Of a stretch of 64,000 bases of DNA, positions 1,003-63,308 are shown piece by piece. Made by a program: the position numbers and the translations under genes. The notes under the pieces were generated by a model. It was not told the origin of the DNA, made no database searches, and saw only the letters and a program-made list of their open reading frames with translations. The first letter of the stretch is position 1; every line of letters starts with the position of its first letter. Origin of the DNA: a virus; the IMG/VR virus record IMGVR_UViG_3300029413_000164; one strand, 5' to 3'.

Positions 1003-1035
1003 GAGAAAAAATAAATCATACTTAATGTAAAGACA
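1003..1035 (+). promoter_or_regulatory. Element-type promoter
   Basis: AAAAAATAAATCATACTTAATGTAAAG upstream of the 1063 start. Confidence 0.5.
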
Positions 1036-1062
1036 GAAAAATGAAGAAAGGAAGATAAGAGG

Positions 1063-1395
1063 ATGCAAAGTGTTTTTAAGACAATATTAGGAATTTTGAT
1101 TATGGTAATGATTTTGTTCTCAGGGCTTGGTATACTGTGGGCAAATAATGAGGCTGTTGCAGCGGAAAGCTACATTCAAAGAGTTGCGGATGAAGTAAGC
1201 TCGGCAAATCTAAGAACAGACGTGCTGGATGCTGAAGTGGATCAGGCGAAGAAAGACGGATATACACTTTCATACGACGTCATGGATGATAACCACGGTG
1301 TACGTCATTATGTTGTGTTAAAACTTCAGTATCAATACAAAGTAAGTGTTGCCGCATTATCGGGAACCCATGAAAAAACAATGACAGTTTACTAA
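1063..1395 (+). CDS. Small membrane protein (N-terminal TM helix)
   Basis: 110-aa ORF with a hydrophobic N-terminus (ILGILIMVMILFSGLGILWA). Promoter motif at 1003-1035 and a terminator directly upstream. Confidence 0.55.
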   Translation: MQSVFKTILGILIMVMILFSGLGILWANNEAVAAESYIQRVADEVSSANLRTDVLDAEVDQAKKDGYTLSYDVMDDNHGVRHYVVLKLQYQYKVSVAALSGTHEKTMTVY

Positions 1396-1410
1396 AAGGA
1401 GGAACAGAAG

Positions 1411-1518
1411 ATGAAAAAATTATTTGAAGGTATAGGTGAAATGATAGTTTACCTGATAGTGTTTCTCTGCATAATTATAGTACTTGGTATTACATATGGC
1501 AAACTGACATCTTATTAG
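1411..1518 (+). CDS. 35-aa hydrophobic peptide (Flp/pilin-like or holin-like, unassigned)
   Basis: ATG with an AAAGGAGG RBS 7 nt upstream. Single predicted TM segment. Too short for the supplied ORF track. Confidence 0.4.
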   Translation: MKKLFEGIGEMIVYLIVFLCIIIVLGITYGKLTSY

Positions 1519-1535
1519 AAAGGGGAGAAAAAGGC

Positions 1536-1679
1536 TTGAAGAATATATTTGAAGAGATTATGGACATGCTTGTTGAAATATTTCCAATGCTTTTATTCAT
1601 CTCTATCATGGCGGCGCTTGTAATAGGCGGATATATGAATGGATGGCTTGATAAGATAGCATCATGGATGTTTGGTTAG
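1536..1679 (+). CDS. 47-aa hydrophobic peptide (TTG start, alternative ATG at 1560)
   Basis: AGGGGAG RBS 8 nt upstream of the TTG. One TM segment. Confidence 0.35.
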   Translation: MKNIFEEIMDMLVEIFPMLLFISIMAALVIGGYMNGWLDKIASWMFG

Positions 1680-1695
1680 GAAGGAGTGATAACAT

Positions 1696-2334
1696 TTGAA
1701 TAAAATAATGGAGCATATACTTGAAATTGCATTATCAGCAATAATTGTAGTATTTCTCATCATTATTCTCTTTGCTGGAAAAATGAACGGCCAAAACGGT
1801 ATTCTTGCAGCTCTTGGCAATTCAAGATACAACACATTAAGCGATCATGTAAATCAGAATACAACTACAAAAGTAAGAGATGTCATGACAACTTTGCCGG
1901 ATGACTTCAACATAAACTATGTTGACGGCACACAGAAGATTGCCATGGTAGATAATAGTGGTGTGTGGAAAAACCTGTATAACTTTGAGGATTTTATAAC
2001 AATCAGGTATGAAAAAAGTGATTATAAATATGACAAATCATCAAAGAAATGGCTTATAAGAACTGGAAGCGGATATGTCAGCCAGACAGGCAGTGACCAG
2101 AAAAAGTTCAGGGTTTACGTTTCAGCTATCACCGATTCAAATGGTAAAAATGTGCTTTTGTCAGATAAGGTGGAAAATTTAAGTGACGATATTCCCGAAA
2201 AGATTTTGTATGATGAAGATAAGGACTTAATTGCTTGCTTTAATCCGGGGACATATAATTTTACGGCTAAAATTCAGGAAACAAATACAAAGAATGTAAT
2301 AGAAAAAACAATATCTATCCCATTTTCAGAATAA
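1696..2334 (+). CDS. Membrane-anchored protein, 212 aa (TadE/pseudopilin-like topology, unassigned)
   Basis: TTG start with an AAGGAGTG RBS. N-terminal TM helix followed by a soluble domain. Confidence 0.55.
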   Translation: MNKIMEHILEIALSAIIVVFLIIILFAGKMNGQNGILAALGNSRYNTLSDHVNQNTTTKVRDVMTTLPDDFNINYVDGTQKIAMVDNSGVWKNLYNFEDFITIRYEKSDYKYDKSSKKWLIRTGSGYVSQTGSDQKKFRVYVSAITDSNGKNVLLSDKVENLSDDIPEKILYDEDKDLIACFNPGTYNFTAKIQETNTKNVIEKTISIPFSE

Positions 2335-2349
2335 GGAAGAGGTGAAATA

Positions 2350-3106: not shown

Positions 3107-3109
3107 CGT

Positions 3110-3140
3110 GCAAAAAAATATCATACTTATGATGAGAGAC
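3110..3140 (+). promoter_or_regulatory. Element-type promoter
   Basis: AAAAAAATATCATACTTATGATG upstream of the 3172 start. Confidence 0.5.
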
Positions 3141-3171: not shown

Positions 3172-4236
3172 ATGGTTAAAGCTGCAGACGCAAAGGAAAG
3201 TATTAAAAATGTGCTTTTGGATGACAAAAAACAAAGAAAAATACGCAGGGGGCTTGTAGCTGGAGGTATAGTAATTGTACTTGCAGTAATGATAGTCGGC
3301 ATAAAAAATTTAAGAAACAATAACAGCCCGGGCAATCTGGCAAAAAAAGCTTATGAATATATAAATGATGGCACTTATTCAATGGAAGTTGACGGCAAGA
3401 CAGATATTACATGTACGTTTGAAAAATTTTCACTGCCTCTTAGTACAACGCTCACTACAAATGGAACGATTGATTCTGATGGCACCAATAAGAACATTAA
3501 GCTTACTTTAAACGGCGATATGAGTTCTGTTCTTGGAAATGACAAATATGAAGATACAAGCGTACAGATTTACACAAACGGAAAGAAAGCCTATTATGGC
3601 ATTGGTGATGAATTCACATGGAAAAAAGTATCAGATAAAAATATAATGAAGGCGGAAGCTGACTCGCCGCAGCAAGTATTAATCAGTTTAAAACAGGTAC
3701 CTGAGAGCAAGTTTTTAAAAGCTTTTTCAGATGGAAAAATTAAGGAAAAAGGCGATAAGACTATACTTACCGGAAAGCTTGACTTCACAAAACTGCGAAA
3801 TAGTAAAATAAAAGACCAGCTGTACGTGCTGTATGGAATGAACGATGTAAAAAAACTGACAGGTACAATATCCGTCACCTTTGACGCTGGGATACCCGTT
3901 TCAGGTGAAATTAAAATAGATGCTAAAAATACTGCGTCAGCAGATGATATGTACAACAAAATGAAAATAAAGGATGATGGAACACAGTCAGGCGAGACAA
4001 CGGATGTATATGACCAGATGAATGTTGACGATTATGTCACGGATGATAATTCTCTTGGAAATATGGTAACAGAAATAAACGGCAGTGTATCATTTACTTT
4101 TAATAAGCTTAAGGACGATATTGAAATTCCTGACATGTCGAAAGAAAAAGAAACAAAAGATACATCTGACGTGCCGTTGGAATGGTGCGGACTTAATAAT
4201 ACAATCAATTATTATTATTTGAAAGGGGACAAATAA
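3172..4236 (+). CDS. Membrane-anchored protein, 354 aa
   Basis: Single TM helix after a basic N-terminus, then a large soluble domain. Promoter motif at 3110-3140. Confidence 0.6.
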   Translation: MVKAADAKESIKNVLLDDKKQRKIRRGLVAGGIVIVLAVMIVGIKNLRNNNSPGNLAKKAYEYINDGTYSMEVDGKTDITCTFEKFSLPLSTTLTTNGTIDSDGTNKNIKLTLNGDMSSVLGNDKYEDTSVQIYTNGKKAYYGIGDEFTWKKVSDKNIMKAEADSPQQVLISLKQVPESKFLKAFSDGKIKEKGDKTILTGKLDFTKLRNSKIKDQLYVLYGMNDVKKLTGTISVTFDAGIPVSGEIKIDAKNTASADDMYNKMKIKDDGTQSGETTDVYDQMNVDDYVTDDNSLGNMVTEINGSVSFTFNKLKDDIEIPDMSKEKETKDTSDVPLEWCGLNNTINYYYLKGDK

Positions 4237-5860: not shown

Positions 5861-6002
5861 AACACGCCGTAAGCAAGAAATCCCCCACCTCTATAGGTGG
5901 TGGAATGAATTGCGGATTACACGGCGTTTTTGACTTTTCTATTTTATTATGTTATAATATATTTATAAATCAGTCGTATTTAGCAGAAAAGGTATAAGTG
6001 TA

Positions 6003-6410
6003 ATGAAATTAGATACAAATAATCATTCAGTGTTCATGTTGCATTATCATCTGATTATGTGCGTAAAATATCGAAATAAGGTAATAGATGATATTATTTC
6101 TAATCGTTTAAAAGAGATATTTGAAAAGATTGCTCCTACTTATAATATTGTATTAGAAGAGTGGAATCATGATATAGATCATGTACATATTTTGTTTAGG
6201 GGACAACCAAATACAGAAATCAGCAAATTCATCAATGCATATAAATCAGCAAGTAGCAGACTCATAAAGAAAGAATTTCCTCAAATACGTAAATCTTTAT
6301 GGAAAGAAATGTTCTGGTCACAGAGTTTTTGTCTACTGACTACAAGTGGAGTTACTGTAGATATTATTAAACAGTATATAGCATCACAGGGAAAGAAAAA
6401 TGGCAAATAA
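6003..6410 (+). CDS. tnpA: IS200-type Y1 (HUH) transposase
   Basis: 135-aa ORF with an HxH motif (HVHILF) and a C-terminal Tyr region (IIKQYIASQ). Confidence 0.8.
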   Translation: MKLDTNNHSVFMLHYHLIMCVKYRNKVIDDIISNRLKEIFEKIAPTYNIVLEEWNHDIDHVHILFRGQPNTEISKFINAYKSASSRLIKKEFPQIRKSLWKEMFWSQSFCLLTTSGVTVDIIKQYIASQGKKNGK

Positions 6411-7554
6411 AGCAATTAAATATCGCATATATCCTACAACTGAACGGAGAGTTATGTTTACTAAGACCTTTGGTTGTTGCCGCAAGGTCTATAATCTTAT
6501 GCTTGCAGATAAGATTGAGGGTTATAAAGCGACTGGGAAATTCCCTACTGTAACGCCTGCTAAGTATAAGGAAGATTATCCTTATCTTAAAGAAGTAGAC
6601 AGTCTTGCGCTTGCCAATAAACAGATGGATTTACAAGCAGCGTTTCGTAATAGATTCAATAAAAAACGTAAAAAGAAAAGTGAATTTCCTAAATTCAAAT
6701 CCGCAAAACATAGCCGCAAGTCTTATACTACGAATAATCAAAACGGCACAGTGGCTATTATAAATAATAAATATATCAAGTTACCTAAAATTGGTAAAGT
6801 GAAAGCCGTTATTCATCGTATTCCTAATGATAATTGGACTGTCAAGTCTGCTACTATATCACTAGCGTCAGATGGTAAGTATTATGCTTCTGTTCTTTTT
6901 GAATTTGATGAAATAGAAAATACCTATATAGCTGATAAAACTAACGCTATCGGATTAGATTATGCGTCTAATGGCTTATACGTAGATAATAATGGCAACG
7001 TAGGTACGAACCATAAGTATTATCGTGAAAGTTATGATAAGCTTGCCAAAGAACAACGCAAACTGTCTCGTATGCAAGGCTCTAAAAAGAATGAAGATAA
7101 GTCTAATAACTATATTAAACAGCTTCATAAAGTAAACAAAATTCATAGACATATTGCTAATCAACGTTTGGACAACTTACATAAAATATCTACTGAGATA
7201 GCCAATCAGTATGATGTTGTCTGCGTAGAGACGCTTAATATGAAAGCAATAGCAAATAAAAAATTTGGTAATGGTAAAGCTACTATGGATAACGGATATG
7301 GAATGCTTTTATCTATGCTTGAATATAAGCTATCTGATAGAAATAAGTATTTCGTAAAAGTGGATAAGTGGTTTCCGTCATCACAAATTTGTCATTGTTG
7401 TGGTACACGGCATCCAGAAATGAAGGATTTAGCTAATCGCAAAATGATATGTGATTGTGGTCTTATAATGAATCGTGACCAAAACGCAGCTATCAATATT
7501 TTGAATGAAGGATTACGCCTGCTTACTGAACGCTTGCTTAGTGAAGCGGCATAA
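6400..7554 (+). CDS. tnpB: TnpB (OrfB) RuvC-like protein
   Basis: 384-aa ORF with an N-terminal YRIYPT motif and a C-terminal zinc finger CHCCG...CDCG followed by DQNAAINI. Confidence 0.8.
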   Translation: MANKAIKYRIYPTTERRVMFTKTFGCCRKVYNLMLADKIEGYKATGKFPTVTPAKYKEDYPYLKEVDSLALANKQMDLQAAFRNRFNKKRKKKSEFPKFKSAKHSRKSYTTNNQNGTVAIINNKYIKLPKIGKVKAVIHRIPNDNWTVKSATISLASDGKYYASVLFEFDEIENTYIADKTNAIGLDYASNGLYVDNNGNVGTNHKYYRESYDKLAKEQRKLSRMQGSKKNEDKSNNYIKQLHKVNKIHRHIANQRLDNLHKISTEIANQYDVVCVETLNMKAIANKKFGNGKATMDNGYGMLLSMLEYKLSDRNKYFVKVDKWFPSSQICHCCGTRHPEMKDLANRKMICDCGLIMNRDQNAAINILNEGLRLLTERLLSEAA

Positions 7555-7700
7555 TCAAAATATACAGTAGGGATGGAATAGCCCAAACTTATACGCCTGT
7601 GGACATTATGTAAGACATTGAGCCGCGTAACATCGCGACTAACGCAGTGGTGGTCGAAGCAGGAAGCTCCGACTCCTATAAGTCGGAGTAGTTCACATCA
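7540..7700 (+). ncRNA. Candidate ωRNA/right-end RNA of the IS
   Basis: Region between the 3' end of tnpB and the right-end hairpin. Locally GC-richer with stem-loops. Inferred by analogy with IS605 TnpB systems. Confidence 0.35.
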
Positions 7701-8484
7701 TGTTTTCAATGTCCTCATAATGTTGAGGTTCAGGAAAGGAAGCGAACAATTCATATCCATGATCTTCCATCCACTTTGTGTATTCAGCATATTCCTCATA
7801 TTCCTTTTTAATTTCATCAAGAGCTTCTGCTGCATGCGGATTTTTGTTATTGTCCGGATGATACATTCTGACAAGATTCTTGTAAACCTTCTTTGCTTCT
7901 TCTGATGACATGTTCTGATACATTATCGGCCTGTATTTAACGGACTTTGGAGCATCGTAATTTGCGAAAATTTCATCGCGAAGCTGCATATTGTGCTCTT
8001 TAAGCTTCTTACTGCGGTTAATCATATCAATCACGTAATCAGGTCTTGAGTATTTAACAACAGAATTTGTATAAGTGTCCTGTATCGTGAGGTTTCCAAC
8101 GACGAGTCCCTCAAGAAGACTGTATCCTATGATTACAGCGCCTATGATAAAAATAAACTTAATACCCGTAACTGCCCATAAAACACCACCGCCGAACAGT
8201 GCTATAAAGCCAAATATGTAAAGCTTCCAGAATTTCATGCGATATAGTATTTCAAGCACAGCATTTGAAAGCATAAGTGACAGCAGCAGGCGACCGTAGT
8301 TTTTCTTTAATCCTTCCGGAGTTTCAAGCCAGTCACCCATGCCTCTTTTCTTTTCGGCTTCAGTAAGTTCTCTTTTGTCATTATTAATAAGCAGTATACG
8401 GTCTATAACCCTGATAAATTTTAAGGCATCATCATTCCTTCTGCCTTGATTCTCAGCTTCTTTGTTTATGTCATTTTTGCTCAT
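7693..8484 (-). CDS. J-domain (DnaJ-like) membrane protein
   Basis: C-terminal HPD motif (YHPDNN), 2-3 internal TM segments. Minus-strand promoter motif at 8529-8590. Confidence 0.6.
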   Translation of the reverse strand: MSKNDINKEAENQGRRNDDALKFIRVIDRILLINNDKRELTEAEKKRGMGDWLETPEGLKKNYGRLLLSLMLSNAVLEILYRMKFWKLYIFGFIALFGGGVLWAVTGIKFIFIIGAVIIGYSLLEGLVVGNLTIQDTYTNSVVKYSRPDYVIDMINRSKKLKEHNMQLRDEIFANYDAPKSVKYRPIMYQNMSSEEAKKVYKNLVRMYHPDNNKNPHAAEALDEIKKEYEEYAEYTKWMEDHGYELFASFPEPQHYEDIENMM

Positions 8485-8528: not shown

Positions 8529-8590
8529 ATTTCCATATATAGTATGTCAGAATCAAAAAGCACAAACAGTTTTCCATATAAGATTTTATC
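8529..8590 (-). promoter_or_regulatory. Element-type promoter (minus strand) for the J-domain gene
   Basis: On the minus strand the upstream element CTTATATGGAAAAC is followed about 18 nt later by GACATACTATATATGG. Confidence 0.5.
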
Positions 8591-8614
8591 ACATTGTAGC
8601 TAAAATTTCAGAAA

Positions 8615-8645
8615 AAAAATAAAAAACATACTATGTTTATCAATA
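8615..8645 (+). promoter_or_regulatory. Element-type promoter
   Basis: AAAAAACATACTATGTTTAT, 40 bp upstream of the 8676 start. Confidence 0.5.
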
Positions 8646-8675: not shown

Positions 8676-11141
8676 ATGAGTGAGAACTTTTCAGATGTGC
8701 TTGATCAGAAATACCGCCTTGACGAACTGTTTGCACTTCCGCAAAACAGGGATATTAAGGCTTTGTATAACTATCTTGACAACATCGCAAAAGAGGGTGG
8801 AGCGGCTATGCCTCCGATGGATTTCTGGATTTCAGAAATGGAAAAAGACCTTCCATTTAACGAGCCGGATGCAAATGTGCGCGACGTAAGAAAGGATGTT
8901 GAAGAATTCTACAAGGCAAATGGTGTAAAAGCTCCGCTTGGCAGAAAGACAATGGAAGCGTTGAACTTTGCAGGACGATATGAAAACCAGGATATTCCAC
9001 ATACAAAAGAGTTTGTGGAGAATTTTGAATCGCAGAAATTTGCTTCATCAACATCACACAGCATGACAAATGGTGCTTACATGGTAAGCGCAATAGCTGC
9101 AGTCTATAGAAGCGGTAATTCAGAGCTGGGAGACTGCCTTGTAAAAGCAGCAAATGCCCTTGCAGAACAGTCACAGCCGGGACACTTCCCTGTGCGTGAA
9201 TTTGGCCGATACAGTGAGCTTATCGTTTCTGATAATCTTAATATTGCCGATAAAGAAAAACTTGTAAATAGCATCAGTCAGCCGGAAGCAAGTGAAATTT
9301 ATACCAGCATGTTCAAACAGGAAAGACAGAATGGGCTTGATGCGCTTGAGAATTCAATGTCAGACATGATGGACAAGCTTGATGAAAAGAGAATTGAAGA
9401 GCAGAAGGCGGGATTTGCTTATTCTGAGGATTTCAGCTTCACAAAAGAAGATTACGAGAGACTTGCCGGAGAAGATATGGAAGCCTTTACGGAATATGTG
9501 AATAAAGTAAAGGAAACTCTGCCAAAAAGCATGCCGGAAGAAGAAAAGGAAACTGAAGCCTACAAGCTTATATCGGAAAGACAGGATGAACGTCTGTCTG
9601 CGGAGATAGAAGGCGTTGATAAGGACAACGAATTTCTTAAGAAGTTCGAAGCCTGCATAAAAGATATCCGCGAACTGCCAGCAGATCGTAAAGAATGTGA
9701 TTCTTTGATTAAATATGATAGTGATTTTATGCACCAGCTTAAAACATCAGAAAAACTTGGTCTTAAATTCAAGTGGATGGCAGGCAATGTAAAAGAAGAG
9801 GCTGTAAGAATGAAGGACGTCTCGCCTCTTATGAATAAAATCCAGAAAATCCACTGCGCATCGCTTACAGCAAAAATGGACGAGATAGTACAGACTATTG
9901 CAAGATGTAATGAAAAAATCACAGACCTGCAGCTTTCTGCAAAAGAAAGAGATCATCTTGGCACTTTTGCAATTGATATGAAAATAAAGGGACTTGAACT
10001 TATCCAGAAAGCATATGCCCGTAAATACAGCAATATGGTGGAAAAGAAGAATCTTTTAAGCCGAAAAATAGAAAAGAGTGACAGGGCTATAAATGACTAC
10101 CGTGCCCAGACAGAAGTTTCAGACCTGAAGTATCTCAGACAGCCAGAATTTAATAAATTCACAGAAAATGAGAAAAAGCTTTTGTATGACTTCTCAATGG
10201 CTGCGCATAAGAGTTTTACTGTTGAAGAGGCGAATATGATGCTTGGTGCGTATATAGCATCAGATGGAAGATTTAATCCGAACATGCTTGCAAAGTACGA
10301 AGGAAAAGATTTGTCAGAAGCAATTCTTTCTGCAAACAGGGTTGCGTTAGAAGACCAGACTGCTGTAACGCATGAGGAGCTTATGCAGACAAACAGGATG
10401 GATTTTACCCTTACAGATCATGCAGCTGAAATTCTTGGCAGCGAAAAGCTTGCAATGGGAATAACTGCTGCGCAGAAGCGTTTTATTATAGATGAGTACA
10501 ACACAGGAGCAAAGGTTGAAGACCTTCAGGCTATTGCTGGACAGTTCTATTCAAAGAGCGGATTTTCGGTTGAAGATGCAAGAATACATATGATAACATG
10601 CAGATTTGAGGATAAAAGTGCAGATGAGGCATATGAACAGGCCATGAATGGCACTTTAGGCGTTCCGGATAAGGATCCTCTGTCTCTTATGGCAAATGCA
10701 GCTAAAACAATGAATAAAACGCTTATGACAACATTTCAGGATTATGATACCAACACAATGTATCAGCTTAAGGCTGCAAAGAATGGCCGCCAGTTTACAC
10801 TTAAGAAGAGAAATCTTGAAACTGGGGAGACTGACCTTTTAAGGGGAACACAAACAATCAGGGATGAGCTTGCGCGCAATACAGACTATGGAATTGCAAT
10901 TACAAACAGCACAAGGGAATGTGTTGCAAATGCATTTTATGAGCAGCGTACCCAGCCGGTGGAAACTGTTGAGAAGGCAAAAGCGGCTTACAATAAAATT
11001 GCTGAAACTGCAAAAGAAGGATACAGCAGTACATATGACAAAGCTGCTGAAGTTGTTGGAAAGCCAAAACAGATTGTGGAAGATACTGTCAAGAGAGTAA
11101 AAAAGAAAATAAGAGACACAGCAGAATCCATCGAAATCTGA
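8676..11141 (+). CDS. Hypothetical acidic protein, 821 aa, coiled-coil rich
   Basis: Long ORF with an AGGAGG RBS. No motif I can assign. Confidence 0.6.
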   Translation: MSENFSDVLDQKYRLDELFALPQNRDIKALYNYLDNIAKEGGAAMPPMDFWISEMEKDLPFNEPDANVRDVRKDVEEFYKANGVKAPLGRKTMEALNFAGRYENQDIPHTKEFVENFESQKFASSTSHSMTNGAYMVSAIAAVYRSGNSELGDCLVKAANALAEQSQPGHFPVREFGRYSELIVSDNLNIADKEKLVNSISQPEASEIYTSMFKQERQNGLDALENSMSDMMDKLDEKRIEEQKAGFAYSEDFSFTKEDYERLAGEDMEAFTEYVNKVKETLPKSMPEEEKETEAYKLISERQDERLSAEIEGVDKDNEFLKKFEACIKDIRELPADRKECDSLIKYDSDFMHQLKTSEKLGLKFKWMAGNVKEEAVRMKDVSPLMNKIQKIHCASLTAKMDEIVQTIARCNEKITDLQLSAKERDHLGTFAIDMKIKGLELIQKAYARKYSNMVEKKNLLSRKIEKSDRAINDYRAQTEVSDLKYLRQPEFNKFTENEKKLLYDFSMAAHKSFTVEEANMMLGAYIASDGRFNPNMLAKYEGKDLSEAILSANRVALEDQTAVTHEELMQTNRMDFTLTDHAAEILGSEKLAMGITAAQKRFIIDEYNTGAKVEDLQAIAGQFYSKSGFSVEDARIHMITCRFEDKSADEAYEQAMNGTLGVPDKDPLSLMANAAKTMNKTLMTTFQDYDTNTMYQLKAAKNGRQFTLKKRNLETGETDLLRGTQTIRDELARNTDYGIAITNSTRECVANAFYEQRTQPVETVEKAKAAYNKIAETAKEGYSSTYDKAAEVVGKPKQIVEDTVKRVKKKIRDTAESIEI

Positions 11142-11202
11142 TGCAGACTCATCGAAAGACCAGAATTTATTTCTGGTCTTTTTTAATGCTTGATGCCAAA
11201 AA

Positions 11203-50643: not shown

Positions 50644-50644
50644 A

Positions 50645-54340: not shown

Positions 54341-54408
54341 TCCACGAAATGAAAATCAATATAAAAAACGCGTGAAAAACTTTCGTAATTCACACGCCTT
54401 TTTTAAAT

Positions 54409-54609: not shown

Positions 54610-54719
54610 AGTTATACACCTCCTGTATTTAATATACATTTTAAAGGGTATTTGTGAAAAAAGCAATCTGTTCCATAAATACACATTAGCATAAAACAGC
54701 TTCATTTGGTTCGATTTTT

Positions 54720-54745
54720 GCCAAAATCATACTCATTTAATACAA
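54720..54745 (+). promoter_or_regulatory. Element-type promoter (distal, about 160-nt leader)
   Basis: CCAAAATCATACTCATTTAATAC. Confidence 0.35.
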
Positions 54746-54906
54746 ATCACGTCAAAAACGTATTCATTTTTCACGATTTATGCCAAAAATGGTATCATTT
54801 TTATGCCTTGAAAGCAATGTACAGTCAGTTTATAATCCAAGTAAGGTATTTAGCAGTTGTAATATATTTTAGAATGGGGATGAAAATTTCAGGAAGAAGG
54901 TGGAAC

Positions 54907-55668
54907 ATGATTTATCTAACAGGCGATACACACAATGATTTTTCAAAGTTGTCAAACAAATCCTTGAAAAAACACGATTTAAAGCTTACAGAGGATGATT
55001 ATATAATTGTTGCCGGTGACTTTGGACTTTGCTGGGCGCACGATAAAACCTTTGACTGGAACTGTAAATGGTTTGCCGAGAGGTCTTTCACAACGCTCTG
55101 GGTTCAGGGGAATCACGAAAACTATGACATGATTGCAGAATATCCACTGGAAGAATGGCATGGTGGTCTGGTACGCCATATCGTAAGAGATAAAGTCATT
55201 CTGCTTGAGCGTGGACAGATATTTAAAATTGATGGACATACATTCTTTACTTTTGGTGGTGCAGCTTCACATGATATTCCAGGCAGTGCTCTTGACCGAA
55301 ATGATCCGAAATTCGAAATAAAGCTTAAGGAACGCCGCAGAGACTGGATTCCGTATCGCATAATCGGCGAATCATGGTGGCCGCAGGAAATTCCGACGGA
55401 ACAGGAGATGCAGACAGGGATTGATAATCTTGCAAAAGCAGACTTTACTGTTGATTATGTAATAACCCACTGCTGTGCCACTGACTTGCAGACGGCCATC
55501 GTGCATTATCTCAACAAACCAAGCAAGGCAGATGTGCTGACAGATTATTTTCAGGCTTTGGAAGGGAAGCTGCATTATAAACACTGGTATTTCGGACATT
55601 ATCACTACTATTTGCAGACAGATGAAAAGCACACGGTATTGTATAATGATATAATTAAACTTGAATAA
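54907..55668 (+). CDS. Metallophosphoesterase (calcineurin-like)
   Basis: Motifs GDTHND, GDFG, GNHEN and GGAASHD. RBS GGAAGAAGGTGG. Confidence 0.65.
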   Translation: MIYLTGDTHNDFSKLSNKSLKKHDLKLTEDDYIIVAGDFGLCWAHDKTFDWNCKWFAERSFTTLWVQGNHENYDMIAEYPLEEWHGGLVRHIVRDKVILLERGQIFKIDGHTFFTFGGAASHDIPGSALDRNDPKFEIKLKERRRDWIPYRIIGESWWPQEIPTEQEMQTGIDNLAKADFTVDYVITHCCATDLQTAIVHYLNKPSKADVLTDYFQALEGKLHYKHWYFGHYHYYLQTDEKHTVLYNDIIKLE

Positions 55669-55680
55669 GGAGAAACTGAT

Positions 55681-56262
55681 ATGAACTATTATATAAGTGA
55701 CCTGCATCTGTTTCACGAAGCATCAATTCGCTTTGATAACAGGCCATTTGGCTCTTTGGATGAGATGCATGAGGCAGTTGTCAGCCGATGGAACAATAAA
55801 ATAAACAATGGAGATACAGTATACATCCTCGGTGACATGAGTATGCGCGGAAGGAAAGAAGACCTCATATCGCTTGTTGCTACATTAAAAGGTAAAAAAA
55901 TTCTTGTTAAAGGCAACCATGATGATGTGTCAGATTACAGATATAAGCAGCTCTTTTATGATGTATGCGATTACAGAGAGATACATGACTCATACGGTGG
56001 TAAGAATTATGACCTTGTACTGTGTCATTATCCTATATTTTCATGGAAAGGCATGAACAGAGGCACAATCCTGTTATACGGTCATACTCACAACAGTGCA
56101 GAGGACGTATATTTTCAAAAGTGTCTGGCAGGAATGGAAGAAAATGACTGTCGCCATGTAGGTGATAAGTCAATTCAGGCATACAATGTGGGCTGTATGA
56201 AGCCATGGATTGACTATGAACCAAGAAGTTTGAAAGAGATTGCAGGAGATTGCAGAATTTAA
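55681..56262 (+). CDS. Second metallophosphoesterase
   Basis: Motifs SDLHL, GDMSMRG, GNHDD and GHTH. Confidence 0.6.
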   Translation: MNYYISDLHLFHEASIRFDNRPFGSLDEMHEAVVSRWNNKINNGDTVYILGDMSMRGRKEDLISLVATLKGKKILVKGNHDDVSDYRYKQLFYDVCDYREIHDSYGGKNYDLVLCHYPIFSWKGMNRGTILLYGHTHNSAEDVYFQKCLAGMEENDCRHVGDKSIQAYNVGCMKPWIDYEPRSLKEIAGDCRI

Positions 56263-56405
56263 CAGCTTGTAATTGAGAAGAACATCACAATCTGTTATAA
56301 TACCTTCATAATCGAATAGGGAAAGAGTCGGGTGTGATTTTTCGGTTGCCCCTAGTACAGAAGGACATGCGGTTTATGTCTGGATGGAAAGGAGGAGTGG
56401 TAATT

Positions 56406-56492
56406 ATGAACACAATGGAAGTATTAACTCTGTTGCTTGTAATCTTTGCTGCACTGGCATACATAGACGGACATAATAATAAAAGAAAATAG
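56406..56492 (+). CDS. 28-aa hydrophobic peptide with a basic C-terminus (type-I-toxin-like)
   Basis: ATG with an AAAGGAGGAG RBS. Sequence MNTMEVLTLLLVIFAALAYIDGHNNKRK. Terminator directly downstream. Confidence 0.35.
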   Translation: MNTMEVLTLLLVIFAALAYIDGHNNKRK

Positions 56493-56525
56493 CACCCCTC
56501 TGGCCAAAGAATGGTGCTATTTTAC
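56491..56525 (+). terminator. Rho-independent terminator
   Basis: AGCACC...GGTGCT hairpin followed by a T-run. Confidence 0.55.
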
Positions 56526-56593
56526 AATAATACTTAACTGAGGCAATCGGAAGTTTTATATCCGATCAACTCTTTCTTTATCTCGATTATAAT

Positions 56594-56630
56594 ATAAGAC
56601 GGCTGATTTTTCAACCGTCTTTTTTTTATA
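56594..56630 (+). terminator. Rho-independent terminator
   Basis: AAGACGG...CCGTCTT hairpin followed by a T8 run. Confidence 0.55.
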
Positions 56631-56850
56631 ATACAAAATCGACTTCTGTCTATGATGATACTTGACCGGCTGCACACACAAAACTTATAATTATTTGCAT
56701 AAAAAGAAGAATTTGGAGAAAACAGATGAAGAAAAGTTTTAACGAGGAGCAGATAAGAGAATTCATTTTTCACTTTTTTTCTGAAAAAATTTTTTAAGTT
56801 ACTTAGAGGTAGAAAAGAAAACCAGCAGTAGTAAATAGACAAATTTATCT

Positions 56851-56876
56851 ATTCGCATAATTTCAATTATGCGAAT
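56851..56876. promoter_or_regulatory. Perfect 10-6-10 palindrome (candidate recombinase core site, dif/att-like)
   Basis: ATTCGCATAA TTTCAA TTATGCGAAT, about 160 bp upstream of the tyrosine recombinase gene in an AT-rich noncoding stretch. Confidence 0.45.
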
Positions 56877-57036
56877 AACGAGATACTTTAAATACTACAT
56901 ATGGGGTTCTTGGCTTAATTTAGTCCTATATATGGTATATTGTAAATCATTACACGCTACATGTTGTATTGTAAAAAATGGTATTTCTTGTTATAATTAT
57001 TTTATAAAAACAGATTACATTTACGGAGGAAATTAT

Positions 57037-58152
57037 ATGGCCCGCGAATATAAAGACCAGAAAAATGCTGAAACTGAAGCAAAGATATACAATTTAAAAT
57101 TGATGCTGCCTGATTTCTGTGCAGGTTATATCAGGTCAATAGCTGGTTATACAAAGCCTTTGACACAGTTAGCTTACTTACAGCGTATACAGTTTTTCTT
57201 AACGTGGTTGCTCGATTACAATGTTTATTTTAACAAGAAATATGATTCAATTGAGCAGTTTACAATTCAGGATTTAGACAAGCTTAAAAAGGCTGATTTT
57301 GAAGAATTTCTAAATCATATACAGAAATATGGCGCAGTTTTAAAGGAAGAACTTGATGCCAGAATGCAGACCGGTAAATATATTGTGCCATCAAAGTCAT
57401 CTACTAGAAACAATTACTTAAGCGCTCTCCGTTCGTTATACAATTATTTTCTTGAGAATGACATTGTAGACAAGGCTCCTGTGCTTAAAATCAGACAGAA
57501 AAAGGTTGACAAAACCATCCCCATTGCTCTTACAGACAGACAGGCTGAGTCAATATATGACACAATTCTTGGCGGTTCAGAACAAATCAGTGCAAGGCAG
57601 GAAGCTTCAAGGATAATTACGTCAGCAAGAGATCTTGCCATCTACACTCTCGCACTGCACACCGGAATACGTGTATCAGAGCTTGTTTCTCTTGATGTAC
57701 ATGATATTAATACTGATGAACATTGTTTCAAAATTATCAGAAAACGTGGAAATGAAGATATTGTTTACTTTGACAATACAACTGAGAATGTACTGTTGGA
57801 TTGGCTCGATGTACGTAAAAATATGAAGGAAACGCTTGGTATTGCAGATGATGAAGATGCTCTTTTTGTGTCAACAAAAGGCGTAAAGAAAGGCACAAGA
57901 TTGTCTGTACGAAGCGTTGAAATAATGGTGAAAAAGTATGCGCAAATTGCAGTTCCTGAAGTAACAAACTTCCATGCGCATTCTCTCAGAAGCTCATGTG
58001 CCACCAGCATATATGATAAAAGCCTTGATTTGGTATACACTCAGAGCCTACTGGGGCATGCAAATATCAGTACTACCATGAGATATGTGAAAAATGATGA
58101 GAAGAAGAAGAAAGAAAATAGAAATCTTCTGGACAAAAATAAAAATGAGTAA
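57037..58152 (+). CDS. Tyrosine site-specific recombinase/integrase (XerC/D-like)
   Basis: Conserved R...HxxR...Y context: ALHTGIRVSEL, HAHSLRSS, LLGHANISTTMRYV. RBS GGAGGA. No element-type promoter upstream. Confidence 0.75.
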   Translation: MAREYKDQKNAETEAKIYNLKLMLPDFCAGYIRSIAGYTKPLTQLAYLQRIQFFLTWLLDYNVYFNKKYDSIEQFTIQDLDKLKKADFEEFLNHIQKYGAVLKEELDARMQTGKYIVPSKSSTRNNYLSALRSLYNYFLENDIVDKAPVLKIRQKKVDKTIPIALTDRQAESIYDTILGGSEQISARQEASRIITSARDLAIYTLALHTGIRVSELVSLDVHDINTDEHCFKIIRKRGNEDIVYFDNTTENVLLDWLDVRKNMKETLGIADDEDALFVSTKGVKKGTRLSVRSVEIMVKKYAQIAVPEVTNFHAHSLRSSCATSIYDKSLDLVYTQSLLGHANISTTMRYVKNDEKKKKENRNLLDKNKNE

Positions 58153-58156
58153 AAAC

Positions 58157-58190
58157 ACAGCGGCATCATAGTCAGGATGCCGCTTTTCCA
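58157..58190 (+). terminator. Rho-independent terminator
   Basis: AGCGGCATC...GATGCCGCT hairpin followed by TTTTCC. Confidence 0.55.
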
Positions 58191-58303
58191 TTGCCTATTG
58201 TACATGTTGTATATATTATATATTTTATGTATATTATACAAGTTGTATAAGTTGTCCATTTTGATTGTGCGCAATGTCTCTTCACTGCTCTTTTGCTTTT
58301 CTT

Positions 58304-58693
58304 CTACTCTATTTCATCCAGATTGTCATCCAGATTATATAATTTCTTAAGGTATTCATACAGCTTATTCTTCTTCTCATCCGAAAGTCTGTAAATCATA
58401 TTCATCTCATCCGGTCTGCACAGAAACAAAAAATTATAATAGACATCTTTTTGAAGCATATATTCACTTTTTCCATACGCCGCATTAACAATCGTCTTTA
58501 AAAACAACTCTCCACGCTTTGTTTTTGCTGCAGGATAAAACTTTATTTTTTCATATATCATTCTGTCAAACACGCCAGCATAATGAAGATTTGGATCATG
58601 ACACTTCAAATAAGCCTCAATCTTTGCCAGCCGGTCTTCTTTTGCAAAGCACCATATATCTACGTCTTCAAATGGATACAACATCATTTTCAT
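58304..58693 (-). CDS. Hypothetical protein, 129 aa
   Basis: Minus-strand ORF without an assignable motif. Confidence 0.45.
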   Translation of the reverse strand: MKMMLYPFEDVDIWCFAKEDRLAKIEAYLKCHDPNLHYAGVFDRMIYEKIKFYPAAKTKRGELFLKTIVNAAYGKSEYMLQKDVYYNFLFLCRPDEMNMIYRLSDEKKNKLYEYLKKLYNLDDNLDEIE

Positions 58694-58851
58694 TATATTT
58701 CTCCCTCCTCATGTTTCAACCATTGACTCACTGCTATTTCTACTTCTCCTCTTTCAGTTATCTTTCACGACTAAATCAGCAGATTTTTAAATACTATATT
58801 TTTGTAAAAGTATTATTGCAGAAAATCAGCTTCCATATAAGACGCGATTCG

Positions 58852-58910
58852 CGCTTTTATATAGAAAGGCAATTTCATACATAATTTCTATCATACTCTA
58901 TATAAAGAAA
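58852..58910 (+). promoter_or_regulatory. Element-type bipartite promoter
   Basis: CTTTTATATAGAAAGGCAAT, about 17 nt, then TTTCTATCATACTCTATATAAAG. Confidence 0.55.
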
Positions 58911-59019
58911 AAGACGGCAATCAGCATAAGATACTACATTTAGGAGGCATTCTATCATATCAGTCAGAACACCACGTCTATAACACCTGCATAGGCGTGG
59001 ATGAATGGCCGTGCATTCT

Positions 59020-59070
59020 TATATGGAAACCTATAAACGGAAATATAAAAAATCATACTTATGTCAGAAA
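59020..59070 (+). promoter_or_regulatory. Element-type bipartite promoter
   Basis: CTTATATGGAAACC, about 19 nt, then AAAAAATCATACTTATGTCAG. Lies 25 bp upstream of the TnpB-remnant ATG. Confidence 0.55.
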
Positions 59071-59083: not shown

Positions 59084-59552
59084 ATGTCTTACAGGGTAAT
59101 CCAGTGTCAGATAGCACAGGATAACTTAATATATGACTATTGTGACAGCAATGCTCAGAAAGCAAAGCTGTTGTATAACGCTGCACTCTTTCGTATCAGA
59201 CAGATTTTCACGGGCTGGGATAAAGACTCTCGTACTGACAATGAGAAAGAAGCCTTTGCTGAAGTAACTCTTTTACAGCAGACTTATCCCTCCATTAAGG
59301 TAAAAAGAGTCATTTCATACTGTCACCTTGAGAAACTGATGCGTGTTACGCATAACCCGCAGTCTTTACCGCTGCTCTAACGGCATGATCATTAATGCCG
59401 ACTGCAACGGCGCTGCAAATATCATGCGCAAGGCCATACCTGATGCATGGAATGGCATAACTGATTTTTCATTCCTCGCATCGCCTAAAGTGTCAGGATT
59501 CCACGAACTGAATCCCCTAAGCATTCCTGTAAAAGGGATAGCGGCCGCGTGA
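59084..59552 (+). pseudogene. Decayed TnpB (IS605/IS1341-type) remnant: N-terminal fragment joined to a frameshifted C-terminal zinc-finger fragment
   Basis: N-terminus MSYRVIQCQIAQ...KLLYNAALFRIRQ resembles the TnpB N-terminus YRIYPT...VYN. The shifted-frame CSNGMIINADCNGAANIMRKA matches the TnpB C-terminus C.CG...D.NAAINI. The RuvC core is absent. Confidence 0.5.
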
Positions 59553-60836: not shown

Positions 60837-60999
60837 AAGCCTGCAAAGCCGGACCAAAATACATATTATTACCACCCCATATACAGACGATGAGTTTATA
60901 TGTAAAAATCCGGAACAGGCAATCATTAATTACGGCCATGAATCTGTAAAGAACTGGTTTGTAATGGATAACATAATATACATTAATCTGGAGGAATAA
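60814..60999 (+). CDS. Hypothetical protein, 61 aa
   Basis: Short ORF overlapping the previous gene. Confidence 0.35.
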   Translation: MKVRELLKSLQSRTKIHIITTPYTDDEFICKNPEQAIINYGHESVKNWFVMDNIIYINLEE

Positions 61000-61001
61000 A
61001 A

Positions 61002-61676
61002 TTGAAGATTATAAAAACACCTGCCGAAATAGATACCCGGCTAAAGTCATTCGTTGTTGTTGCAGATTCTGAAACAGCTATGAAAAATAGTATTGATATT
61101 GTCAGAGAATATGGATATGAAATAAAAATACTAGATTTTTGGCACAAAGATATTTCATGTCACTATAATCCATTTAAGTACGTTCATTCTGATCAAGATG
61201 TCTATGAAATGGCAGACTGTATATTTAAAGACATCAAAGGTATTGGCGGCATGGCGGAAAGACAAATGTTTATATGCATGATTTTATACCTCAGAAGAAT
61301 CCATTCACCAGAAAAACTGACCTTTGCAGATGTGATAAATCTGCCGTACAAAGAGATCAAAATTAATGGATTCCAATGCTTTGATACTTTGAATGGAAAT
61401 GGCGATGAAGCTTTTACAAAAGCATATTACAGGCTAAAAGACCTTTGTCCTGCGAACCGCATACAGGGCACTGCAATATCGCTCAGTGTGAAAATATGTT
61501 TAGCCGTTCCATTTCTTGATAATATTTTTGCGGATGATACTCTCGGTTTAAATGACAAATCTATTAAGTATGAAAAAACAGCAATATTTTTGCCTGATTA
61601 TGATGATGACATAACATTTAGAGATTTTTATAGATTAGCCGCCATGCAGTTAGAAAAAATTAGCCAGGAGGAATAG
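61002..61676 (+). CDS. Hypothetical protein, 224 aa
   Basis: TTG start with a GGAGG RBS. Confidence 0.45.
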   Translation: MKIIKTPAEIDTRLKSFVVVADSETAMKNSIDIVREYGYEIKILDFWHKDISCHYNPFKYVHSDQDVYEMADCIFKDIKGIGGMAERQMFICMILYLRRIHSPEKLTFADVINLPYKEIKINGFQCFDTLNGNGDEAFTKAYYRLKDLCPANRIQGTAISLSVKICLAVPFLDNIFADDTLGLNDKSIKYEKTAIFLPDYDDDITFRDFYRLAAMQLEKISQEE

Positions 61677-61701
61677 CAAAAGCGAAAGGAGAATGAAATA
61701 C

Positions 61702-62418
61702 ATGAAGAAAAAGAAAATCACACTGCTGGCAGTTGTATTAGCTACTGCTGCTATGTTTACAGGATGTACAATCGAGGATGAATATGTTCCAGTTGATACA
61801 GAGATACAAGTTATGGAGACAAATGATATGGGAGTACCGTCATTATCACAGACACTAGACATTCCTGATGAAGACTTCAAACTGGTCTGCGAGTACGGCA
61901 CCAACGGATATGATCTCAACAATTGGCGTGTAACGGATCCAAAACAGATAAGCATGAAAGTACATACACAGGGACTTCCTGATGGATATGATGTAGTAAT
62001 TGACCATGTTCACGCTGACATATCACTGCTGTCAACATCACCTCAGATTAACGGCATAACTCAGGACTCTATGGATGATACATTCCACGGCCAGACTCAG
62101 GATGGTTTTGCTATTTCAAATGACACTGAATACTACAATGTCTTCGCAATCGAGGGTTACACAGACCAGTTCTATGAATTGTGGGGATATGCATTTGGTT
62201 CATATGGAAGCTTATCTTCATCATATGAAAGGCTGACAGAAAACAATATCATACAGGTTGGCACATATGGTGAGAAAATCAGCGTTGTGTATGATATATC
62301 AATTAAAAAACCCGGCAGTGACAAGTATTATACAAAATCAGTTATGAGTACATTATGTGTTCCTGTGTCGCAGAAACTTAATAAAAAAGACGTTATAACA
62401 GGAAAACCTGTAGAATAG
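61702..62418 (+). CDS. Lipoprotein, about 238 aa
   Basis: Lipobox MFTGC. RBS AAAGGAG. Confidence 0.55.
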   Translation: MKKKKITLLAVVLATAAMFTGCTIEDEYVPVDTEIQVMETNDMGVPSLSQTLDIPDEDFKLVCEYGTNGYDLNNWRVTDPKQISMKVHTQGLPDGYDVVIDHVHADISLLSTSPQINGITQDSMDDTFHGQTQDGFAISNDTEYYNVFAIEGYTDQFYELWGYAFGSYGSLSSSYERLTENNIIQVGTYGEKISVVYDISIKKPGSDKYYTKSVMSTLCVPVSQKLNKKDVITGKPVE

Positions 62419-62488
62419 TCATTTACTAATACCCACAGGCAAGCCTGTGGGTTGTGCAACAAATAACATTATGGTCAGGAGTAATATT

Positions 62489-63220
62489 ATGCATATATAC
62501 TTATACATTAGCGCAGTATTGTTTTTCATATTGATTCCCATACTGTTCGCTCTGCTGCTGTGGGCGATTTATGACCGAAAGATTCGGCATATATACAATT
62601 CGGTACATTGTCAGTGCTTGTATTTGTTGTCAGCTTTGCATTTTTTGCAAAATATTTCACGGAGGGACTTTAGAATGAAGAATGTCAAAGTAATATTCAA
62701 TGACACAGATTACGAGCTGGTTAAAAAAGCGTGTCAACAATATGATAAGCTGGTAAAAGATTATCATGAGAAAAATTCTTTGTTCGGATTGTTCACTCTT
62801 ATTACAATTCCTAGCGGTTTTCTTATATTTGTATTTGCAGAGTGCATTTCAAATGCCAGCTTTGCTAATCGGATTATCATAGCATGTACTATTATTCTGT
62901 TTGTGATTTTTCTTGGACAAACATTGGCATACGAAAAGAAAATAGATATAGCCAGTCAATACAAGATAGACTGTTTCAATATAAAATACAGTTTAGAAGA
63001 TTTTATGAGGCACGGCGATCAAATACAATTTGACACAAGCAAAAGAAATGAATTATTTTACGAAATAATGGATCCAGAAAATACATATAAATGCTATGTA
63101 TTATGCAAAGTATCAGTTGCCAACGAAATCCCGGATACAGACAATATCATTTTAAGTCTCAAAGAAACTATAGACAAACGTGGACGTGTCAGCTATGTCT
63201 GGCAGGCAGAAAGTGTATAA
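62489..63220 (+). CDS. Membrane protein (at least 3 TM helices)
   Basis: ATG with a CAGGAG RBS. Hydrophobic segments at the N-terminus and mid-protein. Confidence 0.5.
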   Translation: MHIYLYISAVLFFILIPILFALLLWAIYDRKIRHIYNSVHCQCLYLLSALHFLQNISRRDFRMKNVKVIFNDTDYELVKKACQQYDKLVKDYHEKNSLFGLFTLITIPSGFLIFVFAECISNASFANRIIIACTIILFVIFLGQTLAYEKKIDIASQYKIDCFNIKYSLEDFMRHGDQIQFDTSKRNELFYEIMDPENTYKCYVLCKVSVANEIPDTDNIILSLKETIDKRGRVSYVWQAESV

Positions 63221-63249
63221 GAAAGAAAATCAGCAGGAATACTCTCCTG

Positions 63250-63308
63250 CTATTTTCATATAGAAGGCCATATTTAAAAACAAAAACTATCATACTCTTA
63301 TTGAATAA
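63250..63308 (+). promoter_or_regulatory. Element-type bipartite promoter
   Basis: TTTTCATATAGAAGGCCATATTT, 17 nt, then AAAACTATCATACTCTTATTG. Confidence 0.6.

Follow-up and report, generated by a model that had tools for sequence, protein, structure and literature searches.

We analysed a 64,000-nt stretch of DNA filed as viral (IMG/VR record IMGVR_UViG_3300029413_000164; this whole stretch is referred to as the window), which looks like part of a giant conjugative plasmid or integrative conjugative element (ICE)-like element of gut Clostridia with a size of at least 126 kb. The same short signal built around the hexamer CATACT recurs between the genes of this element, and these repeats are almost certainly promoters of an element-specific class. 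They are probably read by a divergent sigma-70-family protein that the element itself encodes, acting on the host core RNA polymerase.

The core sequence ATCATACTYAT, allowing at most one mismatch, was found 22 times in the window against an expected 4.5 occurrences. A weight matrix seeded from exact motif copies and then iterated converged to an A-rich tract, followed by A(T/A)CATACT and a weak downstream box; it returned 25 sites scoring 20 bits or more, all but one (minus strand) on the plus strand, whilst 30 dinucleotide-preserving shuffles of the window gave none at this threshold, so that the distribution exceeds chance, as an earlier sequence-only reading of this DNA had judged. That reading had counted about 29 copies, which agrees with our listing of intergenic CATACT sequences: 28 credible promoter-like copies and a doubtful one at 54728 (Table 1). 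Its description of the motif as an A-rich tract and core followed by (T/C)AT holds for the tract and the core, of which A(T/A)CATACT is invariant, but the trailing (T/C)AT is weakly conserved; equally, a box does exist downstream, although in place of GTA(A/G) some 10 nt away it is a low-information aT(G/A)nA that begins 5–7 nt after CATACT. Every one of the 28 credible copies lies between genes and faces the gene that follows it; in most cases 30–77 nt separate the C of CATACT from the start codon, and a minus-strand copy of the bipartite type described below precedes each of three minus-strand genes (7693-8484, 17042-17749 and 21420-22424): the claim that gene-facing copies precede nearly every transcription unit, these three genes included, is thereby borne out.

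An unannotated 83-kb human faecal record, MT835474.1, matches the window at 99% identity over its last 21 kb and adds 62 kb upstream, which allowed the analysis to be extended. In the resulting 126-kb composite, AWCATACT is present in 67 copies, compared to a mean of 6 copies for each of 200 permuted 8-mers of equal composition. The motif is not equally common in coding DNA: intergenic DNA, 15% of the sequence, contains 54 of the 67 copies (binomial P=1e-32), and of these 54, 47 are co-oriented with a start codon no more than 250 nt away (median distance 67 nt). The upstream 62 kb alone contributes 28 further sites of at least 15 bits, approximately ten of them bipartite and in the same 33-nt register as in the window. 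Terminator-like hairpins with a T-run were found within 130 nt before 23 of 51 sites (45%) compared to 11 of 400 random positions, and the genes therefore appear to be arranged as insulated terminator-promoter cassettes. Two copies (CATACT 33597 and 33690) precede a cluster of four tRNA genes and a transfer-messenger RNA (tmRNA) gene: the signal therefore acts on transcription and not on translation. A further observation on the cassettes is that one and the same terminator hairpin (AAGGATATAGCT-AAT-GGCTATATCCTT) occurs at ~33550-33580 and ~43145-43175, before two different promoters.

The second element of the bipartite copies, TTATATRGAAGGCCAT, begins exactly 33 nt before the 8-mer core in 13/13 cases, leaving a spacer of exactly 17 nt; the sequence-only reading had put this at about 14 copies and roughly 17 nt. 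When searched as TTATATAGAAGGCCAT with up to three mismatches, the element occurs 13 times in the window against 0.8 expected. Four window copies combine an A-run with the upstream element, and three bipartite copies, at 8546(-), 22540(-) and 28947(+), have no A-run and were missed by the first matrix; logos built from 41 bipartite and 51 A-run copies agree with this architecture. No functional split between the two classes was seen, with replication, surface-protein and RNA genes lying behind both.

CATACT matches TATAAT at four of six positions. Its first base is C; the two bases flipped out by sigma factors in a -10 hexamer, A in second and T in sixth position, are both retained. A conserved purine of the downstream box follows 7 nt downstream of CATACT and is the likely +1, giving a 6-nt discriminator if CATACT represents -12 to -7. 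With CATACT as the -10, the upstream element covers -47 to -32, its conserved part TTATATRGAA lying at -47 to -38, and the A-run of copies that do not have this element is found at approximately -26 to -15. The earlier statement that the upstream element does not occupy the position of a -35 box is thus correct, but the range of -45 to -60 given for it is replaced by -47 to -32. No -35 element was found 16–19 bp before the -10: A-run copies have no conserved upstream hexamer, and the conserved TTATATRGAA of bipartite copies is placed 25 bp before CATACT. The region from -47 to -38 is where the proximal UP subsite and class II activator sites are located, and the upstream element fits such a site in position (~-38 to -59, or centred at ~-41.5, for contact by an activator or by the C-terminal domain of the alpha subunit), being a specific sequence and not an A-tract. 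Four promoters (8546(-), 22540(-), 28947(+) and 48998(+)) have a second upstream-element-like box, TATATGGAAAT or TATATAGAAAT, across the predicted start. In relatives, the 5' half of the upstream element recurs in reverse complement as the downstream box CCATATAA, ~43 bp away. Two further upstream-element-like sequences, at 42946-42961(-) and 54113-54128(-), belong to a coding repeat of two paralogous Listeria-Bacteroides-repeat proteins and were discarded as promoter parts.

Promoters of the sigma-A type are present on the element as well, and they are found elsewhere. TTGACA-N16-18-TATAAT sequences with 11–12 of 12 matches occur ten times (~2 in shuffles); six of the ten fall in motif-less segments, and none of the ten precedes a motif-bearing gene. 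No copy of the CATACT motif was found upstream of the XRE-family gene, the tyrosine recombinase gene or the IS605 tnpA/tnpB genes, exactly as the sequence-only reading had it, and the motif-less block at 54.3–58.7 kb, which contains five near-consensus sigma-A-type promoters, provides an internal contrast. Housekeeping promoters of the host are therefore of the canonical type, from which the CATACT class is distinct; taken together, placement, orientation, the RNA genes, the terminators and the separate sigma-A-type promoters support the proposal of an element-specific promoter class distinct from host promoters. Two sigma-A-type sequences lie antisense within genes: one with 12/12 matches (TTGACA-16-TATAAT) at ~40755-40784(-) inside the DUF5052 gene 40387-41016, and one with 11/12 matches at ~40036-40065(-) in gene 38541-40325. 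These may give rise to antisense transcripts.

The candidate reader of these promoters is the product of the element's sigma-like gene. The protein on its own yielded a sub-threshold Sigma70_r4_2 match as its only Pfam result (E=0.004) and an NCBIfam sigma-70 superfamily match that lies below the cutoff (E=7e-10). An exhaustive search of 1.8 billion representative proteins revealed 20 relatives, and a profile of 19 family members could be aligned to the solved factors SigA, RpoD, RpoS, SigF and FliA with E-values down to 1e-15; this alignment covers profile positions 48-261, that is regions 2 to 4, through region 4.2. Pfam Sigma70_r2 was matched by 8 of the 19 members, and the top Foldseek matches of the AlphaFold model (pLDDT 73) were all full-length sigma factors. 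Because of the profile match, the Sigma70_r2 matches and the structural matches to sigma factors only, we conclude that the product of 15961-16896 is a genuine, very divergent member of the sigma-70 family; it is the single copy of its family in the 126 kb. The other factor nominated beforehand, the HU-like protein (32738-33010), is also real (Bac_DNA_binding, E=4e-37), but HU-family proteins are generally non-specific DNA binders, and for that reason it is a poor candidate for a specificity factor.

The alignment also speaks to promoter recognition: YIIRHAVQ of the element's sigma aligns with WWIRQAIT of SigA, which places His and Gln at the positions that we equated with Q437 and T440 of sigma-70 by sequence conservation in the SigA profile alignment. 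Either of the substitutions Q437H and T440I suffices to suppress a T-to-C change at -12 (PMC2613000), and the residues of the element's sigma fit the C with which CATACT begins. In region 4.2, the residues aligned with those that read the -35 element are KKDVIK in the element's sigma as compared to RERIRQ in sigma-70, and this alteration fits the absence of TTGACA.

The layout of the sigma operon is given in Table 1. The protein of the leader open reading frame (ORF) in front of it is conserved in contigs whose sigma is 42–64% identical and, being conserved as well as overlapping, may act as a translational coupler or a small regulator of sigma. The divergent XRE protein is a candidate repressor of the operon; no CATACT is present on the minus strand of 15603-15960. 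Upstream of the core motif at 15836 there are two sigma-A-like sequences with 9/12 matches (15751-15779 and 15799-15827). Within 15751-15800, two copies of the direct repeat AACTGAATA are found around the weak sigma-A-like promoter of the operon, and the related contig L006 has the palindrome AACTGTATACAGTT at the equivalent place; both may be operators for the divergent XRE protein. The partner protein encoded on the other side of the sigma gene has only 6 homologues and gave no Pfam, NCBIfam or PDB match, with no DNA-binding domain detected; its AlphaFold model (pLDDT 51) was too poor, and a fold assignment was dropped. It is a candidate co-factor; more tentatively, recognition of the upstream element may be the task of the partner or of a complex of sigma and partner, which would then be a novel kind of promoter-specificity factor.

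Promoter and sigma co-occur in relatives. In L006 (sigma 64% identical) and L005 (51%), aaaaaat-A(T/G)CATACT precedes the conserved leader ORF and sigma gene, and in L022-L025, with sigma identities of ~25–31%, aaaaa-CATACT likewise lies upstream of the sigma operon. Two bipartite copies of L022 keep the 33-nt register; in the L023/L025 clade the bases preceding CATACT are (T/C)A, and the upstream element of L025 is 1 nt closer. A whole module travels together in these contigs, comprising genes for a MoxR-type AAA ATPase, a von Willebrand factor A (VWA)-domain protein and a 142-aa protein, the leader ORF, sigma, a divergent ~240-aa gene and an exonuclease gene. The co-occurrence of motif and sigma in distant relatives supports sigma as the reader.

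As the sequence-only reading had proposed, we also searched public collections for the pattern itself, requiring the full bipartite motif, so that the search is no test of core-only copies in host chromosomes. Multi-copy matches were obtained from only two public contigs: seven exact hits in one 92-kb IMG/VR contig (3300045988_182914) and two in a 25-kb contig of a Eubacterium metagenome-assembled genome (MAG) that has no genes in common with this element. The 92-kb contig has one 8-kb segment that is 98% identical to this element and elsewhere carries unrelated genes, each behind the same cassette, with 11–12 copies per 14 kb; promoter stretches of 54–78 nt with 88–90% identity (L009 9784-9840 and L010 3377-3453 of this contig) are there almost the sole nucleotide similarity. 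The cassettes may be portable modules or recombination points for the exchange of cargo genes. Single bipartite matches in MAGs of Clostridia and Actinomycetes (L015, L018) were taken as chance, with ~9 expected in 596 Gb by our own estimate. In an Agathobacter MAG (CAKRNE010000002.1; L019 6793-6833(-)) a complete bipartite copy precedes a 185-aa gene, in surroundings that resemble an unrelated integrative conjugative element (TraG/VirD4 fragment, ADP-ribosyltransferase, ParE/Phd); this copy may be due to chance or may mark a gene that responds to this element's sigma. The MAG contigs that contain the promoter are labelled Eubacterium sp. and Agathobacter.

Searching IMG/VR with sigma protein patterns found no relatives, nor were any found in phage and plasmid collections, where the only protein similarity in phage databases was a weak C-terminal match to Clostridium phage c-st; tblastn against 72,556 PLSDB plasmids gave no match at E<=1e-3, the presence of pBS32 in this set being unconfirmed. 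A metagenome scan returned near-identical copies only, and co-variation of sigma and promoter can therefore be examined on short contigs alone.

These results lead to the following model. CATACT would act as a -10-type element to which the element's sigma directs the host core RNA polymerase, with strength or control provided by one of two upstream features, either the A-run or TTATATRGAAGGCCAT at -47 to -32; the latter most likely binds an auxiliary factor or is contacted by the holoenzyme in an unusual upstream interaction. Relief of repression would permit a first burst of sigma from the weak sigma-A-type promoter, after which sigma would amplify its own synthesis through the core motif of its operon and switch on at least 55 insulated terminator-promoter cassettes, which would cover the replication, type IV secretion, surface-protein, HU, tRNA and tmRNA genes. 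In this scheme we infer the transcription start, the reader of the core, the binder of the upstream element and the switch logic, and several observations weigh against the element's sigma as the reader. Across relatives, the promoter including its upstream element is conserved far better than sigma, and the partner protein (37–58% identical, as compared to 24–51% for sigma) and the VWA protein are better conserved than sigma, too. The His at the Q437 position is confined to a close clade, whilst the P0009-P0012 clade has Gly with the same CATACT. Sigma possesses region 4, yet there is no conserved element at canonical -35 spacing; the upstream-element-like box recurs around +1 in four promoters; and as the sigma gene lies behind the motif itself, another promoter must prime the system, for which only the 9/12 sigma-A-like matches are available upstream. 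Finally, ~100 kb of a 228-kb metagenome contig that carries the same element lie outside the sequence seen and could encode other factors. The conservation pattern, the His/Gly difference and the +1 boxes in particular keep alive the alternatives of a host sigma, of sigma-A with an activator and of a factor in the unseen part.

A host alternative sigma, for example of the mother-cell sporulation type, could read the promoter whilst the element's sigma serves another function. Such a reader would explain why the promoter is so much better conserved than the element's sigma and why the sigma gene itself sits behind the motif, and the -10 consensus of both sigma-E and sigma-K of Bacillus starts with CATA, resembling CATACT. 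We consider it unlikely, however, given that motif, sigma and partner gene always travel together, that dependence on a sporulation compartment would be odd for the replication, conjugation and tRNA genes of a mobile element, and that, in a search for the full bipartite pattern, multi-copy matches came from one related contig and one small MAG contig with no genes in common and not from chromosomes; the upstream element and the A-run are moreover unlike the -35 elements of sporulation sigmas. Equally improbable in our judgement is that sigma-A holoenzyme reads CATACT as a weak -10 with the aid of element-encoded activators (class II activation or sigma appropriation), the partner or another protein providing the specificity. 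The position of the conserved part of the upstream element would suit this arrangement, as would a partner protein that is better conserved than sigma and has a bipartite promoter of its own, and the upstream-element-like boxes around +1 in four promoters suggest a DNA-binding regulator. Yet over half of the copies do not have the upstream element, no DNA-binding domain was detected in the partner, and the conserved module has a genuine sigma gene at its centre; furthermore, CATACT is invariant including the C at -12, which is disfavoured by sigma-A (PMC2613000).

It appears very unlikely that, as with phages of the T7 or N4 type, the motif is read by an RNA polymerase whose gene lies in the part of the element that was not seen. 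The ~100 kb of the 228-kb contig that were not seen leave room for such an enzyme, and phage polymerases typically use promoters that are highly uniform and have a conserved initiation region; against this, the core resembles a sigma-type -10 and a sigma factor is encoded, and neither a D-x-D-G-D catalytic signature in a plausible protein nor a polymerase homologue was found in the 126 kb. A YonO-like or multisubunit phage RNA polymerase was also rejected for the unknown proteins of 821, 749 and 946 aa, which have no similarity to polymerases. Least probable of all is that the repeats are not promoters but recombination cassettes, partition sites or signals for RNA processing or stability: a promoter-sized stretch as the sole nucleotide similarity in otherwise unrelated DNA of the 92-kb relative would fit recombination hot spots, but this reading has to contend with the strict co-orientation with genes, the fixed distances to start codons, the -10-like core with a purine 7 nt downstream, the location of sites just after terminators and their absence from genes with sigma-A-type promoters. 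Recognition by the element's own sigma thus stays the explanation that we favour.

Concerning the nature of the element, the same DNA is present with 98% identity on the 228-kb metagenome contig ERZ857965.27. Pfam, PHROGs and NCBIfam scans were performed on most window ORFs and on the ten largest proteins of the upstream 62 kb; no capsid, portal, terminase or tail gene and no recognisable relaxase was found amongst these proteins, and the PHROG matches that were obtained are to families of unknown function. Identified instead were a VirD4/TraG coupling protein (T4SS-DNA_transf/TraG-D_C, E=8e-61), whose relatives are mostly found on conjugative Firmicute plasmids, a VirB4/TraC-like ATPase (TraG P-loop/DUF87), a 1386-aa NlpC/P60 hydrolase and topoisomerase III. 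Surface proteins include a BspA-type leucine-rich-repeat protein, a 1828-aa subtilase and several proteins with Listeria-Bacteroides repeats, and DNA handling is represented by two RecD2-like helicases, a DnaE-type polymerase, two single-stranded DNA-binding (SSB)-domain proteins and the HU protein. The regions 11254-14789 and 35091-37340 encode a MoxR-type AAA ATPase, a VWA-domain protein and an SCO0854-family RING-domain protein (NCBIfam E=1e-126, below the model cutoff), the AAA and VWA genes belonging to the sigma-associated module in relatives. The RNA cluster at 33824-34720 comprises four tRNAs (Met twice, Trp, Glu) and a tmRNA according to ARAGORN; the tmRNA (33921-34221) scores 93 bits with Rfam and has the predicted tag ANNRCLAAA. 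A tmRNA and four tRNAs of its own are unusual cargo for a conjugative-type element. Type IV secretion genes combined with no virion genes in 126 kb suggest that the window and the public records MT835474.1, MT836173.1, MT835874.1 and IMG/VR UViG 3300045988_182914, all filed as bacteriophage or viral, are probably misclassified. A difference of ~208 nt at 19644-19851 was rejected as an insertion in the window: it corresponds to an in-frame deletion of 69 codons in the RNase_T-type exonuclease gene of MT835474.1.

Table 1. Promoter copies and associated features of the window. Element, upstream element of a bipartite copy; CATACT, position of the hexamer.
Feature	Positions (strand)	CATACT	Next gene or remarks
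Divergent sigma-70-family protein, 311 aa	15961-16896 (+)		regions 2, 3, 4
Leader ORF, 27 aa	15879-15962 (+)		overlaps sigma start codon; conserved in relatives
XRE-family helix-turn-helix gene	15255-15602 (-)		Pfam HTH_3 E=2e-13; divergent from sigma operon, motif-less
Partner gene	17042-17749 (-)		neighbours sigma in all relatives examined; own bipartite promoter
A-run copy	1003-1031 (+)	1017	gene 1063-1395; terminator hairpin precedes
A-run copy	3108-3136 (+)	3122	gene 3172-4236
Bipartite copy	8532-8581 (-)	8546	element 8581-8566; DnaJ-domain gene 7693-8484(-) (Pfam)
A-run copy	8613-8641 (+)	8627	821-aa gene 8676-11141
A-run copy	11201-11229 (+)	11215	MoxR-AAA / VWA / 142-aa operon 11254-15226
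A-run copy	15822-15850 (+)	15836	leader ORF and sigma gene
Bipartite copy	17804-17853 (-)	17818	element 17853-17838; partner gene 17042-17749(-)
Bipartite copy	17919-17968 (+)	17954	gene 17980-18474
Weak A-run copy	18471-18499 (+)	18485	gene 18527-19366
A-run copy	20387-20415 (+)	20401	gene 20446-20727
A-run copy	20783-20811 (+)	20797	SSB gene 20846-21289
Bipartite copy	22526-22575 (-)	22540	element 22575-22560; gene 21420-22424(-)
Promoter-like copy	22626-22654 (+)	22640	primase-like zinc ribbon gene 22679-23374
Bipartite copy	23393-23442 (+)	23428	DnaE-type polymerase gene 23472-27602
A-run copy	27659-27687 (+)	27673	SSB-domain gene 27741-28646
Bipartite copy	28912-28961 (+)	28947	RecD2-like helicase gene 29008-31203
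A-run copy	31428-31456 (+)	31442	SPFH gene 31481-32572
Bipartite copy	32640-32689 (+)	32675	HU-like gene 32738-33010
A-run copy	33583-33611 (+)	33597	RNA gene cluster
Bipartite copy	33655-33704 (+)	33690	134 nt before tRNA-Met / tmRNA / tRNA cluster 33824-34720
Bipartite copy	38142-38191 (+)	38177	genes 38212-41529
A-run copy	41582-41610 (+)	41596	gene 41637-43130
A-run copy	43175-43203 (+)	43189	1828-aa subtilase / surface-repeat gene 43233-48719
Bipartite copy	48963-49012 (+)	48998	gene 49075-50586
A-run copy	50641-50669 (+)	50655	gene 50707-52956
Bipartite copy	58857-58906 (+)	58892	
Bipartite copy	59019-59068 (+)	59054	gene 59084-59380
Bipartite copy	63256-63305 (+)	63291	gene 63362-63859
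Doubtful copy	exact 11-mer at 54726	54728	no A-run, no upstream element
IS200/IS605 tnpA and tnpB	5929-7554 (+)		genes 6003-7554; TTGACT-17-TG-TATAAT ending 5958 directly upstream of tnpA; no motif
Motif-less block	54300-58720		two phosphoesterase genes, tyrosine recombinase 56869-58152, gene 58304-58693(-)

Mobile-element sigmas with private promoter sets are already known, as exemplified by T4 gp55, SPO1 gp28 and SigN of pBS32. Phage-wide promoter classes are read by the phage sigmas T4 gp55, whose late promoters (TATAAATA) consist of a -10 only, and SPO1 gp28 and gp33/34. As in these phages, a sigma from a mobile element would here redirect the host core polymerase to many near-identical promoters; in contrast to them, no virion genes were seen, the sigma retains region 4, the consensus differs, and one promoter class extends over all functional groups with no obvious split into early, middle and late. 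Repeated terminator-plus-promoter cassettes between genes are also found as the PeSL cassettes of T4-type phages, but those use host sigma-70 early promoters, whereas the consensus here is element-specific. That the cassette is the only sequence common to otherwise unrelated segments suggests a role in modular gene shuffling.

The nearest precedent is SigN (ZpdN) from the B. subtilis plasmid pBS32: it controls a plasmid-restricted regulon, and its gene has a repressed sigma-A promoter together with a sigma-dependent, auto-activating promoter (PMC6751061). Both systems have a sigma encoded on a large plasmid-like element and a regulon that includes replication-type genes, and the sigma operon described here has a core motif, sigma-A-like matches further upstream and a divergent gene for a candidate repressor, an arrangement that may correspond to that of pBS32. 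It would be in keeping with derepression that leads to positive feedback, a course of events demonstrated experimentally for SigN (PMC6751061). The differences are nevertheless considerable: SigN is weakly ECF-like (extracytoplasmic function type), whilst this sigma has regions 2, 3 and 4, with no detectable sequence relationship between the two; the promoters here have no canonical -35 but either an A-run or an element in fixed position from -47 to -32; an XRE protein takes the place of LexA as candidate repressor; and at least 55 units are covered, that is nearly every transcription unit including secretion, surface-protein and tRNA/tmRNA genes.

Sigma genes are likewise carried by Firmicute conjugative elements of the Tn916, Tn1549 and Tn5397 families. 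Their sigmas are small proteins of the region-4 type or ECF-like and control few operons, and we know of no description of an element-wide promoter set for them. Sigma-family genes of these clostridial conjugative transposons have been reported with the promoter consensus unknown (PMC7438776), the CATACT mentions in that report being incidental. Our literature search found no prior description of this motif or element. What is new here is the sigma family, the consensus with its upstream element in fixed register and the conserved partner gene, as well as a promoter set that extends to practically all transcription units of a giant conjugative-type element, tRNA and tmRNA genes included.

If confirmed, these findings would mean that an element of 126–228 kb from Clostridia of the human gut controls nearly all of its genes via one promoter type and its own sigma, which would explain its silence or its switching on as a unit and would make transfer and surface-protein expression predictable from one regulator. 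The pair of sigma and promoter would also be a compact orthogonal system for genetic tools in Clostridia, which are hard to engineer. The signature TTATATRGAARG-N21-AWCATACT recovers fragments of the element family from metagenomes even when they have no genes in common, and the analysis flags records filed as bacteriophage that look conjugative. More tentatively, and as a possibility to which we give the lesser weight, there may be a novel family of giant conjugative elements of gut Clostridia, each equipped with a private sigma, a conserved partner and one portable terminator-promoter cassette: if so, new cargo genes would plug in behind the cassette, and essentially the whole element including its tRNAs and tmRNA would be activated together, with no dependence on host promoters.

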